Below, one piece after another: positions 1-36,762 of a DNA stretch of 41,767 nt. Source of the DNA: Campylobacterota bacterium (GTDB lineage: Bacteria; Campylobacterota; Campylobacteria; Campylobacterales; Sulfurovaceae); the NCBI GenBank assembly GCA_034722955.1, contig JAYEOM010000069.1:1-41767 (forward strand), in the 5' to 3' direction. The first letter of the stretch is position 1. Each line of letters begins with the position of its first letter. Below the pieces are notes generated by a model, which was not told where the DNA came from, ran no database searches, and worked only from the letters and a program-made list of their open reading frames with translations. The translations under genes and the position numbers were made by a program.

Positions 1-1
1 A

Positions 2-97
2 GCCTACAAAGATGGGTATTCTCAACAGATGATTGCTAAAGTATTGGGAATAACACAACAAGCTGTGTTTGCTGCGATCAAGAGGAGTAGGAGATGA
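2..97 (+). CDS. C-terminal end (HTH) of a protein entering from the left edge, probably a Y1/RAYT-like transposase with C-terminal HTH
   Basis: Hand translation, frame 2: AYKDGYSQQMIAKVLGITQQAVFAAIKRSRR*, a helix-turn-helix (SQxxIAxxLGITQxAV). The stop is followed immediately by the 25-bp repeat ending in CCTGACCCC. The transposase assignment rests on recalled family architecture; the catalytic part is not visible. Confidence 0.55.
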   Translation, partial: AYKDGYSQQMIAKVLGITQQAVFAAIKRSRR

Positions 98-122
98 GTT
101 GTAGTTGTTACCTGACCCCTTT
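98..122 (+). repeat. 25-bp inverted repeat, copy 1 (GTTGTAGTTGTTACCTGACCCCTTT)
   Basis: Exact reverse complement of 1766-1790. Confidence 0.95.
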
Positions 123-316
123 CTATTGGCTGATATCCTTATTCCCATACTTGATAATCAGTTGCCTTATGGTGAGCTTTTTTATAAAACTGGAAGTTGC
201 TCCAATAGTGTTTTGGCATTCTCTTTTCTTGTAAATATTGGTAGCCAATGCAGTATAGTGCATGTTGCAAAATATGGATGTGTTGGCTCATATATCTTAT
301 ATCTACTTCTTCCCAT
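123..316 (-). pseudogene. REP-associated tyrosine transposase (RAYT) pseudogene: internally deleted, frameshifted and truncated
   Basis: Minus strand from ATG 316: MGRSRYKIYEPTHPYFATCTILHWLPIFTRKE-NAKTLLEQL, then shifted frame FYKKAHHKATDYQVWE*GYQP. It matches the RAYT N-terminal F.TCT..WLP.F motif and the Q.W..G..P motif. The HUH segment is missing. Confidence 0.8.
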
Positions 317-360
317 CGGTTATTGTAGCTATTTTGGGCTTGATTGTTTACTAGATGTTG

Positions 361-393
361 GTATGCATTCCATATCGGGAGATATGGAACGAG
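361..393 (+). repeat. REP-type palindrome GTATGCA-TTCCATATC-GGGA-GATATGGAA-CGAG
   Basis: 9-bp perfect stem (368-376/381-389) with a 4-nt loop. It resembles the GCATTCC...GGAACGAG REP family and lies 45 bp upstream of the RAYT start. Confidence 0.8.
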
Positions 394-582
394 CTAAATG
401 GAAATGGGAGATGTGCCAGATTGTTTACTGATCTATGGCTTGTGTCCATAGGTAAAAACATGCTTGAGTGGGGTAGTGAGAATATTGACAACGTAAATAA
501 TACAAGAGTAGAGTATATCAGTGCATTACAGGAAGTTGATAATGGAAATTATGAGCGATTAAAAAGTTTTATGTTTCCTTAG
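394..582 (+). pseudogene. C-terminal fragment of a Fic-family protein (mobile mystery protein B-like)
   Basis: NGNGRCARLFTDLWL...WG...RVEYISALQEVDNGNYERLKSF is the second half of the Fic HPFxxGNGR motif plus an MMPB-like tail. The HPF and the N-terminus are replaced by the REP. Confidence 0.75.
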
Positions 583-724
583 CGTGAATCTTCTGCTATC
601 ATATCCTAGTTTATAGGGAGTTTTATTCAAAGCACTCACCTTTTCAAAAAAATAAATCCTCATAAGCAGTAGATAACAAATTCTTTTCTATCACTAATAT
701 GATGAGTCCCATCACAGCAGAGTG

Positions 725-1270
725 TTATTTAAACTTAACATAATAAATATGTCCTGAAGCTTTAAGAGCATATATCACACCTTTTTTCAAATTATCAATA
801 TTATCAGGCTTATTAATAAACGAATCTATACCAAACTTTTTAATTCTCAAATCCATACTAAAGCTATTGTCTTTACAATAATATTTTCCATCTTTTTTAA
901 TATTTTTTGTATCTGTTATATATAATCCCTTATTATCATAAATATCAACTTTATAAAAATAATCACCTTTGATTGTATAACCACCTTTTTCAACAAAAGA
1001 ATGAAACTCACTTAGAGGAATAGTTGTAATTTTGGGTTTTACATCGGTTGTACAACTATGTAATACTATTTGTTTACCATTCTTTTTTCCATAAGCAGCA
1101 TATAGACCATTTAAAAGTTTCGTTCTATATCCACGATGACCATGATCCATTTCTATATATTTGCCACTATCTAATTTTGCATATAAACCATTAAATTCAG
1201 GTTCTACCATTTGTTCAGCATAGCCACTACTTGATAAAATGACTAATAAAACTAAAATAAATCTCTTCAT
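725..1270 (-). CDS. Hypothetical exported protein (low GC)
   Basis: Open ORF. Likely start is ATG 1270 (MKRFILVLLVILSSSGYA, signal peptide) with a GGAGGT RBS upstream. Confidence 0.8.
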   Translation of the reverse strand: MKRFILVLLVILSSSGYAEQMVEPEFNGLYAKLDSGKYIEMDHGHRGYRTKLLNGLYAAYGKKNGKQIVLHSCTTDVKPKITTIPLSEFHSFVEKGGYTIKGDYFYKVDIYDNKGLYITDTKNIKKDGKYYCKDNSFSMDLRIKKFGIDSFINKPDNIDNLKKGVIYALKASGHIYYVKFK

Positions 1271-1320
1271 AAGAGACCTCCATAATATTAAATTTACCTT
1301 CTTTACTCTCATAAATTAGG

Positions 1321-1359
1321 TATATTCAAAATTCCAAATAATATGGATTTTTGAATATA
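1321..1359. promoter_or_regulatory. 16-bp imperfect inverted repeat (possible operator or hairpin)
   Basis: TATATTCAAAATTCCA-N7-TGGATTTTTGAATATA, 15/16 complementary, about 50 bp upstream of the exported-protein start. Confidence 0.45.
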
Positions 1360-1765
1360 ATCATTGACCCAAAATATAAGTATGACTTACCAAACTTGAC
1401 AAGTCATTGCTACCTGAACATAATATGCATGATAAACACTTGAACTCTTTAGAGCCACTTGCAAATTCACACAAAAATCAGCTAATTAAAATATATAGTA
1501 GTCCAAAAGTTGAAATCTAATTTCAGATAAGTTATAATTTTTTACGACAAAAATCTAACAGAAAAGAGATTCAACTAATGACTAAAAGTATAGCATCACT
1601 TTCTAAAATTTTTATAAATTATGTTGAAAATTAGATTGTAAATACAACTTAAATTAGTTAATTATTACATAATAATAGTAAATATGTAAGTCTGATTTAT
1701 TTTCATCAATATATTTTTTCTAGGTCAACGCATTGCATTTGCTAAGGCAAAGAGGCAAAGGAGGC

Positions 1766-1790
1766 AAAGGGGTCAGGTAACAACTACAAC
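1766..1790 (-). repeat. 25-bp inverted repeat, copy 2 (AAAGGGGTCAGGTAACAACTACAAC)
   Basis: Exact reverse complement of 98-122; preceded by and partly overlapping AGGCAAAG x3. Confidence 0.95.
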
Positions 1791-1838
1791 CTTCAATACC
1801 AATACCACCCCCAAAGTAAAAACAAGCTAAAATAAAAA

Positions 1839-2618
1839 ATGTCACATAACCCAAAAATCACAACCATCCAAACCCCAGAGGAGACAACAAACTACAACTA
1901 CCTATGTCAAAACAACATAAGCAGTATCACCAAAGGCAATGAGAGCTTCAACTTCACCTATGATGGTAATCTACTAACACAGATAGAGCAGAGAGGTATA
2001 CTCAACCAGACATTTAGCTACACCTATAACAATGACTTCCAAATCACTACTGCTACTTACGCTAACCAAACGAATAACTACAGCTATAACAGTGATGGAG
2101 TGCTAATATCTATCGGTGCGTTGGGAAACGCACCCTACACTCTCACTAGAGATACAAACAGTGGTTTCGTCAAACAACTAACAGATGGAACAATAACACA
2201 AAAGAGAAAACACAACAACTACGGTGAACTAAATGAAGTAGAAGATGATCTCTTTGAGTATAGACTTAAAAGAGATAACCTAAAGATATCATCCAAAACA
2301 GAGACTATCACAAAAGAGATACCTAAACAAAACGGTAAAGGTACTCAGAGAGTAAAAGAGAGAACTAAATATGAATATACTTATGATAGTATAGATAGAC
2401 TTATAGAGGTTATCAAAGATAAAGAGATAGTAGAGCAGTATAGCTATGATGCTAATGGTAATAGAGCCTCTGCTATAGTCAATAATATTACTACTACAGC
2501 ATCTTATACTTTAGATGATCAACTTGTAGTCTATGGAGATGATACATATAGATATGATAACGATGGATATCTCATAGAGAAAGTCACACCTGATGGGACG
2601 ACTTTTATACTTTCCTGA
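1839..2618 (+). pseudogene. Internal fragment of an Rhs/YD-repeat protein
   Basis: YD repeats (FTYDGNLL, YTYDSIDRL, YSYDANGNR, YRYDNDGYL). It lacks the N-terminus, the Rhs core end and the toxin tip, and ends in a fusion with IS sequence. Confidence 0.85.
2115..2138 (-). repeat. GTAG-type REP element inside the Rhs fragment
   Basis: Minus strand reads GTAG-GGTGCGTT-TCCC-AACGCACC: a GTAG foot plus a perfect 8-bp stem. Confidence 0.8.
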
Positions 2619-2812
2619 CAAAGATATAGATGAAGTACTTGATAAAATCTATCAACAGTTACGAACTAATAAGATTGTCATTCGTCCCAATAGAAAATAT
2701 GATAGACCCTCTGCTAGAGAAGATAAAAATAGTAAAGGAATCAAAAGTGCTAATTATCAAAAAAGGAAGAAGAAAATGGTTTTTTAGGAGTTGGAAATGC
2801 TTAACGCCATTG
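2593..2812 (+). mobile_element. IS4-family remnant: transposase C-terminus (2593-2787) and putative right terminal repeat CTTAACGCCATTG (2800-2812)
   Basis: IRPNRKYDR motif and basic tail resemble IS4-family transposase C-termini; the terminal sequence resembles IS4-type ends. Based on recall, not a database search. Confidence 0.6.
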
Positions 2813-2877
2813 ACCCTGACCCTAAGATTTTAAAGTAGCCTGTCCCCTTTTATTTATTTCTATGATTATCAAGAGTG

Positions 2878-2912
2878 ATAAAAGTGGAGATTGAACGGCA
2901 GGGGTGAATGGC
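2878..2912 (+). repeat. 35-bp dispersed repeat, copy 1
   Basis: ATAAAAGTGGAGATTGAACGGCAGGGGTGAATGGC, 33/35 identical to 36684-36718. Confidence 0.9.
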
Positions 2913-2937
2913 AATAGATGCTAGTTCCCAATTTCAC

Positions 2938-3894
2938 TCAAAGCCTCTCAGGCATCTCATCTTTGAAGGCGATATCTTCTGCTTTGGAGAGTATATCCAA
3001 AGCACCCTCTGAGATCATCATATCAGCAAGCAGATGACCCAAGCCATCTGACTCTCCTAGTGGGGCTGTGAGCATCTCCTCCATGATATGTGTACCATCA
3101 GGGTATCCGATCATAGATCTGATAGTCATAGTCTCATCCTCTCCTATCACTGCATTGACAGCTACAGGTGCTGAGCATCCTGCACCAATCCTAGAGACAA
3201 AGTCTCTCTCTTGCTTAGTACAGAGATAACTCTTCTCATCATTTAGACTCATAGCCACCTCCCTCATAAGTGCATTGTCACTTACTATCTCTATGCCTAG
3301 AGCAGCCTGACCCATAGGAGGGATCATAAAAGAGAGCTTCTCTACGAAGGGGATATCTTTGAGGAGATCGAGGCGTGCCAAACCGATATAGGCTAGAATG
3401 ATAGCATCATACTGACCCTCTGCAAGCTTCCTCAAACGAGTGTTTACATTGCCACGAAGATCTTTGACTCTCAAGTCTGGTCTCTGCTGTAGTAGCTGCA
3501 TGCGTCTTCTCAGGCTGGTGGTTCCTACTACTGCACCATTGGGCAGATCATCCAAGCAGCTGTAGGTGTGTGACAAAAAGAGATCACTCTGGTCTTGTCT
3601 CTGCGTAATAGCCACTAGCTCTAGTCCATCGGGTATATAGGTAGGGACATCTTTGAGTGAGTGCACTGCTAGATCAGCATTGCCTGCCAACATCTCATCC
3701 TCTAGCTCTTTGGTGAAATGCCCTTTGCCTCCTACTAGAGCTAGGGGTTTGTCTAGGATCTTATCTCCCATGCTAGTGATCTCATTGAGTTCTACTTCGA
3801 TATCAGGAAAACTATCCTCTATGCGTGCCTTGATATGATAAGCTTGCCAAAGTGCCAGATTGCTCGCTCTGGTTGCGATAATGATCTTTTTCAT
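2938..3894 (-). CDS. hemC: Hydroxymethylbilane synthase (porphobilinogen deaminase)
   Basis: IATRxSxLALWQA, GKGxFTKELE, VHSLKDVP, GTTSLRR, LRGNVNTRL motifs. Confidence 0.97.
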   Translation of the reverse strand: MKKIIIATRASNLALWQAYHIKARIEDSFPDIEVELNEITSMGDKILDKPLALVGGKGHFTKELEDEMLAGNADLAVHSLKDVPTYIPDGLELVAITQRQDQSDLFLSHTYSCLDDLPNGAVVGTTSLRRRMQLLQQRPDLRVKDLRGNVNTRLRKLAEGQYDAIILAYIGLARLDLLKDIPFVEKLSFMIPPMGQAALGIEIVSDNALMREVAMSLNDEKSYLCTKQERDFVSRIGAGCSAPVAVNAVIGEDETMTIRSMIGYPDGTHIMEEMLTAPLGESDGLGHLLADMMISEGALDILSKAEDIAFKDEMPERL

Positions 3895-3903
3895 CAAACT
3901 ACT

Positions 3904-4731
3904 CTACGGCATAAAAGATTTGTATCTGTTACGCATCTTGTCCCATTGGCTATCAAAATAGATCGTTGGTGTGCCTGTGACCATAACTTTAGCAGCAGCA
4001 TCTTCATCTGACTCTATCGCCTGTTTGACAGCTTTTCTCTCTATCTCTGCCTTGGTAACTGAAAAGCCCGTTTGCGTTTTCACCGCAGCGAGTACCTTGT
4101 CGATATTGGTCTCGTTGGGGTTGATCTTCAGAGAGTATAGTTTCTCTACGACATCACTCTTTTTCCAATCCTGAGCTACATGCATCACGCGAACCAAGAT
4201 ACCTGATACAGGGTGTATACTCAATAGTGGTAGATGGTAGTAGTATAGTGCGAAAGTATCTGGATATTTTCGTGCTGCATCCATGATCTCAGGCACTATC
4301 TCCATACAATACGGACACTGAGGATCAGAGAATATAACTATCTTATGTTTAGCATCTTTATTACCAAAGAGCAAGTGATCATCGCTATAGTATGAGTCAG
4401 GAATCGATGGTTTATACTCATTGGAGTAGTTTTTATTTCTCTTTAGATTCATCAATGCCGGTGTGATCAAATCTCCATTGACAAATATAGTTTGAGGAAC
4501 AGATAGATCTTTACCATTATGTATCAACTTCATATTGGTAAGATATACTTCCCACCCCTCTTCACCATCTACCTTTTGTATATCCACAATCTCTACACTA
4601 GATACCCTGACAGCAGGATTTTTTACAATAAATTTTTTGACATATTTTGTAAGTTTCGCTTCACTCATACTAGCATCAAGAGTGGCTGTTATTACGATCA
4701 TACTCATCAATAACTTCAACATCAATGACAT
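3904..4731 (-). CDS. Periplasmic thioredoxin-fold disulfide oxidoreductase (DsbA/DsbC/DsbG-like)
   Basis: Signal peptide, FSDPQCPYC active site, GTPT cis-Pro loop; AAGGAG RBS. Confidence 0.85.
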   Translation of the reverse strand: MSLMLKLLMSMIVITATLDASMSEAKLTKYVKKFIVKNPAVRVSSVEIVDIQKVDGEEGWEVYLTNMKLIHNGKDLSVPQTIFVNGDLITPALMNLKRNKNYSNEYKPSIPDSYYSDDHLLFGNKDAKHKIVIFSDPQCPYCMEIVPEIMDAARKYPDTFALYYYHLPLLSIHPVSGILVRVMHVAQDWKKSDVVEKLYSLKINPNETNIDKVLAAVKTQTGFSVTKAEIERKAVKQAIESDEDAAAKVMVTGTPTIYFDSQWDKMRNRYKSFMP

Positions 4732-36611: not shown

Positions 36612-36683
36612 ATACACTGCACCCAAAAACAGACACCCAAATTGATAATAGTATTTGTCTCTTTTTTACTTTGGAATTATGTC

Positions 36684-36718
36684 ATAAAAGTGGATATTTA
36701 ACGGCAGGGGTGAATGGC
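36684..36718 (+). repeat. 35-bp dispersed repeat, copy 2
   Basis: 33/35 identical to 2878-2912; followed by CCTGACCCTAAG (36725-36736), also present at 2815-2826. Confidence 0.9.
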
Positions 36719-36762
36719 TCAACGCCTGACCCTAAGGTTGAGAGGGGGCAGAAGGTAAATAG

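Follow-up and report, generated by a model that had tools for sequence, protein, structure and literature searches.

What does a perfect 25-bp inverted repeat mark at the start of a bacterial contig, when one of its arms begins on the base after a stop codon and the other stands just ahead of a fragment of an Rhs gene? The repeat lies in the first 41,767 bases (the window) of contig C69 from a draft Campylobacterota genome of 140 contigs, 2.51 Mb and 40% G+C. A preliminary description of this DNA took the arms for ends of a distinct family of Y1-transposase elements that capture and shuffle cargo, or alternatively for the borders of an invertible or exchangeable cassette. Our reading, to which we give a probability of roughly 0.85, is that the perfect inverted repeat consists of two separate, independent ends of TIRtrons, elements in which a RAYT-like gene lies between long terminal inverted repeats (TIRs) and whose enzymes are named TIRYTs (Di Nocera, De Gregorio and Rocco 2013, PMC3733652). 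The feature is real, and both its enzyme and its ends had been recognised correctly, but the type of element had already been named, and the ideas of an Rhs cargo and of a cassette are not supported.

The two arms and the gene beside them

Both arms (98-122 and 1766-1790) are 25 nt long, 100% complementary and separated by 1643 nt. No further match to the arm with up to 3 mismatches is found elsewhere in the window, nor did any of 100 shuffles produce one; the repeat reported earlier is genuine. The same holds for its junction with the upstream gene, the frame at 2-97 stopping with TGA at 95-97 and the first arm starting on the following base. When the whole genome is considered, the exact 25-mer occurs at 6 places, and a 22-nt unit, GTTGTAGTTGTTACCTGACCCC, in 43 copies at up to 4 mismatches (33 copies when 2 mismatches are allowed, the reversed control giving 0), which means that the two arms of the window are not a private pair. 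Grouping these units, termed family A, by the sequence on their inner side gives 7 right-end units that follow the TGA of a gene with a helix-turn-helix (HTH) tail, the first arm of the window among them, and 5 left-end units 40-50 nt upstream of the ATG of the HTH-tailed gene. A further 14 are the arms of 7 exact doublets (unit, TAATTA, inverted unit), and 3 belong to partial or degenerate doublets at contig ends. The inner flank reads CTTCAATAC... in 7, including the second arm (two of these rows are one locus on overlapping contig ends), and starts with TCT... or similar in the remaining 7. The base immediately outside the unit is T in nearly all copies. Eight other adjacent pairs of units are found on one contig at spacings of 321-3527 nt, so that the pair in the window, at 1671 nt, is one of several such groups. 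Among relatives the 22-mer is patchy, being present in 6 of 40 other genomes, with 0 matches for the reversed control.

The gene ending at 97 survives as its last 31 codons and TGA (2-97, plus strand), the remainder being lost at the contig start, and its family is best seen in longer relatives. Pieces matching a paralogue of 182 residues lie on 20 contigs of this genome (tblastn), and three longer paralogues (on C104, C130 and C67) match Pfam Y1_Tnp at 52.6-67.0 bits (cut-off 23). The tail in the window is 81% identical to that of a full-length orthologue of 256 residues in an alignment of 14 sequences (A1), in which both the HUH (NHYHLL) and the tyrosine (YIEQNP) motif are conserved, and in which the window stub aligns to the C-terminal HTH. 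An AlphaFold (AF2) model of this orthologue has a mean predicted local distance difference test score (pLDDT) of 79.9, with helices at residues 203-254 (pLDDT 73-88), and a fold search with the model returned as its top match the complex of an E. coli RAYT with a REP hairpin (4ER8; E 1.5e-6, template modelling (TM) score 0.67, target-normalised), followed at ranks 2-17 by the IS608, IS200 and ISDra2 transposases. The sequence of the C67 protein gave 0 matches in the PDB at E <=0.01. By way of paralogues and orthologues alone, the gene ending at 97 is predicted to belong to the IS200/RAYT-type Y1 (HUH) family with a C-terminal HTH tail, an outcome favourable to the preliminary description, which had supposed a Y1 domain (HUH plus Tyr) here. 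A first sample of 41 genomes contains the gene in 23 (E <=1e-10), and a set of 201 genomes from the order contains it in 61 (E <=1e-40), mostly with one to three matches per gene-bearing genome in both samples; the 15 matches in this genome are the highest number in the 41-genome sample, relatives having 0 to 6. The chromosome of a same-family relative (locus L083) carries two identical TIRYT genes at a distance of 3 kb.

One complete element spans C130:7152-8018, and its arrangement recurs widely. Among the full-length genes that we inspected, a left repeat with a GGGTCAGG-type core lies upstream of the start in 11 of 11, and a right repeat stands at the stop codon in 9 of 11. In a larger set of 27 distinct genes (a count that leaves out two C130 rows with a mis-set start and one duplicate locus), 18 have a repeat pair scoring >=12, and in 17 of those 18 the inner end of the right repeat falls -3 to +1 nt from the stop codon; from the flanking sequences as printed, we read a GGGTCA-type core at one end or at both in no fewer than 20 of the 27. 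The outer core, given as (G)GGGTCAGGT in the inverted repeats of relatives, is conserved and the inner part variable: (A)GGGGTCAGGT is kept across proteins merely 35-45% identical, and the inner part differs between clades and agrees between both ends of each element. For instance, in the clade nearest to the window the inner part is made up of two tandem hexamers, GTTGTA-GTTGTT in this genome and GATAAT-GATAA, ATGCTA-ATGCTA and GACAAC-AACAAC in relatives (loci L028-L032 and L082-L086), which vary together with the recognition region of the HTH, the core remaining constant. The element-specific flanks are of TTAA type at the left and TTTCT at the right, with no direct duplication. The preliminary description had named GGGGTCAGG...CCTGACCCC as the ends of a distinct Y1 family; they are indeed the ends of elements that encode the Y1-HTH gene, but the family is not new, TIRtrons having been named in 2013. 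In this genome TIRtrons are in all likelihood elements of about 0.9 kb, with a single TIRYT gene between TIRs.

The first arm is part of a right TIR of family A at 98-125 on the plus strand, with the unit at 98-119 and a tail TTTCT(A) that reaches 124-125. Three identical copies (C69, C126 and C138) are alike up to this tail and then diverge, the gene tail and repeat having 100% nucleotide identity to the ends of C126 and C138, which places the end of the element a few bases beyond CCCC. The arm is very probably the right end of a recently multiplied family-A copy abutting an old RAYT pseudogene; it had been called the right end of an autonomous copy, and right end it is, though the copy may not be full length. 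The pseudogene (126-316, minus strand) is a degraded classical RAYT paralogue with an internal deletion and frame shifts, truncated at the TIR. Positions 313-173 and 195-127 on the minus strand match by tblastn a full-length RAYT paralogue at C134:1366-1878, which itself scores 100.8 bits on NF047646 REP_Tyr_transpos (cut-off 80), and nucleotide homology to it (blastn) begins at 126, three bases past the arm, in agreement with the earlier statement that a RAYT pseudogene is cut off at this point. The classical RAYT on C134 coexists with the TIRYT families and is directly followed by a family-E end.

A similar picture emerges for the second arm (1766-1790, minus strand), which holds a solo family-A unit at 1769-1790 with its outer end pointing left and the inner flank CTTCAATAC... 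on its other side. Directly outside the arm, at 1740-1768 (plus strand), is a tandem stutter of GGCAAAG-type units (unit CCCCTTTGC / CTCCTTTGC, as read on the minus strand). Very probably this arm is a solo end that became fixed ahead of an Rhs-type leader. Since both outer ends face 123-1765, this segment lies between two elements and not inside one, and the 1.6 kb are most probably ordinary DNA. They consist of the RAYT remnant, an open reading frame (ORF) of no family, A+T-rich DNA and an intact ORF of 195 residues with a signal-peptide-like start (725-1312, minus strand), which belongs to neither element and has no Pfam family at E <=0.01. Pfam likewise gave no family for 182-316 (minus), 355-579 (plus) or 725-1270 (minus), and Rfam 0 matches at E <=0.1 over 1-4000. 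A Fic-like GNGR motif can be seen by eye in 355-582. Comparison with public runs, in the form of short contigs from four runs of one study, found one contig of 1157 nt spanning 370-1526 with no differences. In three of the four runs 690 is joined to 886 with 4 other letters between, which is a strain variant without the 3' part of the 725-1312 ORF.

End families, doublets and stutters across the genome

The motif CCTGACCC, for which the preliminary description had proposed a genome scan, is strongly over-represented, occurring at 116 places in the genome compared to 14 for the reversed control. About 100 of the 116 places fall in at least 6 end families with a common core and a different inner part, namely A (about 28 ends), D (about 31), E (about 22), F (6), B-like (4) and IS4-type (4). 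A further Y1-HTH family has as its ends the R2 repeat, of which the genome holds 24 units. At C31:1462-1816 two R2 units enclose a Y1-HTH gene with an internal deletion, whose ORF of 103 residues joins the N-terminus of the enzyme directly to the HTH tail, making it a miniature deletion derivative. At C80:7016-7278 four copies of one core-bearing end (inner ...GTCGATA) form a small tandem cluster within 260 nt.

The 7 exact doublets of the family-A unit, with 28-nt spacing (on C3, C20, C30, C42, C62, C132 and C134), are perfect 50-bp palindromes, with a computed folding energy of -28 kcal/mol (z -11.7) as single-stranded DNA; for single units it is 0 to -1.4 kcal/mol, not better than for shuffles. 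As read from the flanks, the stem of most doublets is bordered directly by GTAG at one side and by TTAA at the opposite one. In a same-genus relative (loci L066, L074, L078 and L079) doublets of the same unit have a different centre, TCAAGA, and doublets therefore seem to have formed anew in each lineage.

Stutters like the one outside the second arm are frequent. At 27 of 94 distinct family ends (29%) the outer flank is duplicated in tandem over 6-16 nt, in many cases together with the final bases of the core, compared to 668 of 29,918 random sites (2.2%). When family A is considered alone, 10 of 40 ends carry one, and the same stutters lie beside ends in relatives. A control on the inner side (13 of 39) is uninformative owing to the fact that it counts two shared sequences, 11 of the 13 being the partner arm's own hexamer repeat and 2 one shared leader.

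The Rhs side and the competing explanations

To the right of the second arm lie an Rhs-type leader (1791-1838) and an internal Rhs/YD-repeat fragment of 259 residues, together at 1791-2618 on the plus strand. The ORF at 1839-2618 matches Pfam RHS_repeat at 26 bits (cut-off 22) and aligns within open frames of 1841 and 1402 residues in two relatives, confirming the Rhs fragment reported after the second copy of the repeat. The -10 box said to follow that copy could not be recovered: a consensus scan places no promoter-like site in 1790-1839, and over 1-3000 it gave 18 sites against 15.4 expected, with no enrichment. The assembly contains no full-length Rhs gene, tblastn giving short Rhs pieces only, and a regular-expression screen for YD repeats found one ORF only. 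Eight family-A units (C24:21388, C8:24752, C97:133, C18:4223, C30:17778, C75:202, C89/C132 and window 1769) join an Rhs-type leader at the same base with differing outer flanks; 5 of the leaders have an MSHN-type start or are partial, and 3 have a signal-peptide start.

Within the window GGGTCAGG occurs 5 times (111, 1770, 2815, 3306 and 36725; shuffle mean 0.81, largest 4). The preliminary description had let the Rhs unit close with CCTGACCC at 2815-2822 and CCTGTCCCC at 2839-2847. The first of these is the end of the right terminal repeat (about 2797-2823) of a 3' remnant of an internally deleted IS4-family (DDE) element (2674-2826, plus strand), and the second, found at 7 places in the genome with flanks that are all unrelated, belongs to no repeat family. 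The remnant is 87% identical to C114:31045-31227, the full frame lying at about 30416-31200 of C114 and miniature copies at about 100-260 of C49 and 335-452 of C117; a relative's gene scores 139.8 bits on NF033592 (cut-off 115) and 45.3 on DDE_Tnp_1, and a search of the species genomes for more copies of the gene gave 1 locus only. The terminal repeats of the remnant and the miniatures start with GGGTCAG, the same core as at TIRYT ends, which could be convergence or could reflect a DDE gene between TIRtron-type ends. One IS4-type end carries the same flank-plus-core stutter. Further along, the right end of the R2 TIRYT family, including the last codons of its HTH tail, lies at 2855-2910 (plus strand), and the motif copy at 3306 is inside an ORF (2938-3897) and belongs to no repeat family. 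The copy at 36725, described earlier as standing beside another accessory gene, is present as a truncated family-D solo end (...TCAACGCCTGACCC) after a solo R2 unit at 36681-36718 (36681-36732 in all, plus strand), but it is placed between ORFs, with no transposase gene next to it.

Could 1769-2822, or 1769-2847, nevertheless be a non-autonomous element with a captured Rhs fragment, in a system that shuffles such cargo, as first proposed? The cores at 1769 and 2815 are in left-end and right-end orientation, an IS4-family gene remnant is also found between ends starting with the same core, and the fixed junction of 8 units with an Rhs leader, given their differing outer flanks, indicates that the multiplied unit is truly bounded by the repeat. 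However, the inner parts of the two ends are those of different families, the right one being the IS4-family remnant repeat at 2797-2823. The stretch 1769-2912 is a mosaic, the pieces of 1769-2822 matching C30/C18/C120, C77, C31, C127 and C114 separately, and the whole has no second copy. The window's is the only one of the 8 leader junctions that runs into more than 100 residues of Rhs, most others being followed by stubs only, and of the other 12 family-A units of the two classes concerned not one is paired with a matching family-A right end over a distance of 3.5 kb (another right-oriented core is present at 2 of them). With CCTGTCCCC belonging to no family as well, captured Rhs cargo is very unlikely. 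An alternative origin of the repeats, as the ends of miniature elements moved by a DDE transposase (e.g. of the IS4 family) with the Y1 genes as passengers, has points in its favour, as terminal inverted repeats are typical of DDE elements and are present here, the IS4-family remnant and miniatures start with GGGTCAG, and the T outside nearly all units recalls TA-type targets. We consider it highly improbable nonetheless: the Y1-HTH gene is the sole gene between the repeats, in 17 of 27 genes, drawn from many genomes, its stop is immediately next to the right repeat, the IS4-family gene is found in 3 of 41 genomes compared to 23 of 41 for the Y1-HTH gene, and the flanks (TTAA-type left, TTTCT right) are not direct duplications.

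That 123-1765 might be an invertible or exchangeable cassette recombining at the arms is suggested by the perfect 25-bp inverted repeat around a 1.6-kb segment with one intact gene, but the idea is hardly credible when the arms are seen to point their outer ends inward, to come from a 43-copy family with 8 other adjacent pairs 321-3527 nt apart, and to enclose a mixture of pseudogene fragments. The neighbouring gene codes for a Y1 transposase rather than for an invertase of the serine or tyrosine type, and the aligned public contigs contain no inversion joint, though they are too short to exclude one; on these same two points we rejected a Hin/Gin-type invertible segment. The repeat pair could also be an artefact of assembling a repeat-rich metagenome bin, given that the contig end at which the window begins falls within the repeat, that 28 of 43 units lie less than 600 nt from a contig end (6.7% of the genome does so), and that neither arm is spanned, with 31 nt to each side, by any of the public contigs listed. 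Against this, public contigs cover 1-127, 95-171, 126-258 and 370-1526 without conflict, and the same unit is found with varied flanks inside longer contigs and in other genomes, leaving an artefact with very little probability. One public-contig joint, of 1786 to 97 with 3 letters between, is the doublet form present elsewhere in the genome.

Independent TIRtron ends remain our preferred reading, though several observations weigh against it or against parts of it. The copy in the window is limited to 31 codons; its tail is 100% identical over 60 nt to one on C9 that is a truncated fragment, and the window copy may likewise be incomplete. In the assembly we found no family-A gene that is intact, the one on C130 having an early stop and those on C104 and C108 being cut by contig ends. 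The best NCBIfam match of the three longer paralogues, REP_Tyr_transpos (NF047646), reaches 63.4-73.9 bits and lies below its cut-off of 80, and the matches of the HTH tail are all sub-threshold (Pfam HTH_23 at 21.4 against a cut-off of 24.6, Pfam Sigma70_r4_2 at 19.0 against 25.7, NCBIfam sigma70-ECF at 23.9 against 42.9). The match between hexamers and HTH type is confounded by shared descent, which needs no functional link. Among 13 same-genus genomes there was no clean empty site for the doublet at C134:27385-27440; one of the 13 aligned (74% identity), ending 5 nt before the doublet and with no right flank. No excision or circle junction is present in the public contigs aligned to the stretch, and transposition has not been seen directly; cleavage position, strand specificity and the role of the HTH are things that we infer.

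Relation to known elements, a possible mechanism and significance

In the sections of the two papers cited here, many TIRtron repeats are said to share GGGGWSAS and to occur as single, dimeric or grouped copies (PMC3733652), and 20 of 26 TIRYTs are assigned to TnpA-REP subclass 2.1 (Quentin et al. 2018, PMC6006769), which is described as having C-terminal HTH domains (Bac_DnaA_C, HTH_23, HTH_28), as lacking nearby REPs and as occurring in 14.9% of strains (PMC6006769). The elements of the window are of this known TIRtron/TIRYT class, TnpA-REP subclass 2.1. The outer end of family A, GGGGTCAG, fits GGGGWSAS exactly. Here too a RAYT-like Y1/HUH gene with an HTH tail (sub-threshold in its scores) lies between long TIRs that fit this consensus, the repeats are also dispersed as singles, dimers and groups, and no typical REP hairpin stands beside the gene. 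What is unusual in this genome is the many copies and fragments (15 matches), the at least 6 end families with one core, the internal-deletion derivatives, the palindromic doublets and the stutters.

Other known systems share some of these features. The classical RAYT with its REP or REPIN repeats (the REPtron; Bertels and Rainey 2011) supplies both the best structural match (4ER8) and the best NCBIfam match, and the doublets here resemble a REPIN in being hairpin-forming inverted pairs, mostly with GTAG just outside the stem on one side. Unlike in a REPtron, however, the single unit is not palindromic and has no fold, the enzyme scores below the RAYT cut-off and has an extra HTH, and the gene is multi-copy, RAYTs being described as typically single-copy (bioRxiv 10.1101/119735). 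We rejected membership of the REPtrons on the lack of a hairpin fold in single units and on the scores of 63.4-73.9 on NF047646 (below 80). With the TnpA of IS200/IS605 elements such as IS608 and ISDra2 there is in common the Y1/HUH fold and the asymmetry between left and right flanks, but the ends are inverted repeats and not subterminal hairpins, and there is no tnpB. This group was rejected on its inverted-repeat ends and on the scores of the three paralogues on the NCBIfam IS200 transposase (NF033573), 17.5-25.4 bits at a cut-off of 55. The terminal inverted repeats, internal-deletion derivatives and solo ends are reminiscent of DDE insertion sequences and miniature inverted-repeat transposable elements, from which the elements here differ in encoding a tyrosine transposase of the Y1 kind and in showing no fixed duplication of the target.

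A possible mechanism would have the Y1 domain recognise the GGGGTCAGG core and nick one strand a few bases outside it. The element-specific flanks differ between left and right (TTAA-type and TTTCT), which fits a strand-specific mechanism as in the IS200/IS605 and RAYT enzymes. The HTH tail might read the variable pair of inner hexamers and thereby confer specificity for the family, and on single-stranded DNA a long stem would form from doublets or paired inverted ends. Stutters, solo ends and copies with internal deletions could then be by-products of abortive or one-ended nick-and-rejoin reactions. A bolder version, which we think unlikely, makes the GGGGTCAGG core a common nick-and-join site for co-resident TIRYT paralogues, so that any DNA between left- and right-type cores could be moved or rearranged and the stutters would be footprints of the reaction. 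Were this true, the Rhs leaders and the IS4-family transposase gene would be candidate cargo, and the point at which this enzyme class cuts would be marked by the stutters found next to about 29% of ends.

TIRYTs are a large subclass of HUH tyrosine transposases, for which our literature search found no biochemical study. For annotation, the TIR repeats explain both the breaks in the assembly (28 of 43 units being at contig ends) and why the neighbouring Rhs and RAYT genes are fragments. This genome is a rich example of the TIRYT class, and possibly one in which the elements are active. It can be regarded as a natural experiment, in which families with one outer core differ in their inner repeats and HTH tails, and the identical recent copies, deletion derivatives, doublets and stutters lead to testable predictions as to how the repeats are read by the domains of the enzyme and where the DNA is cut.

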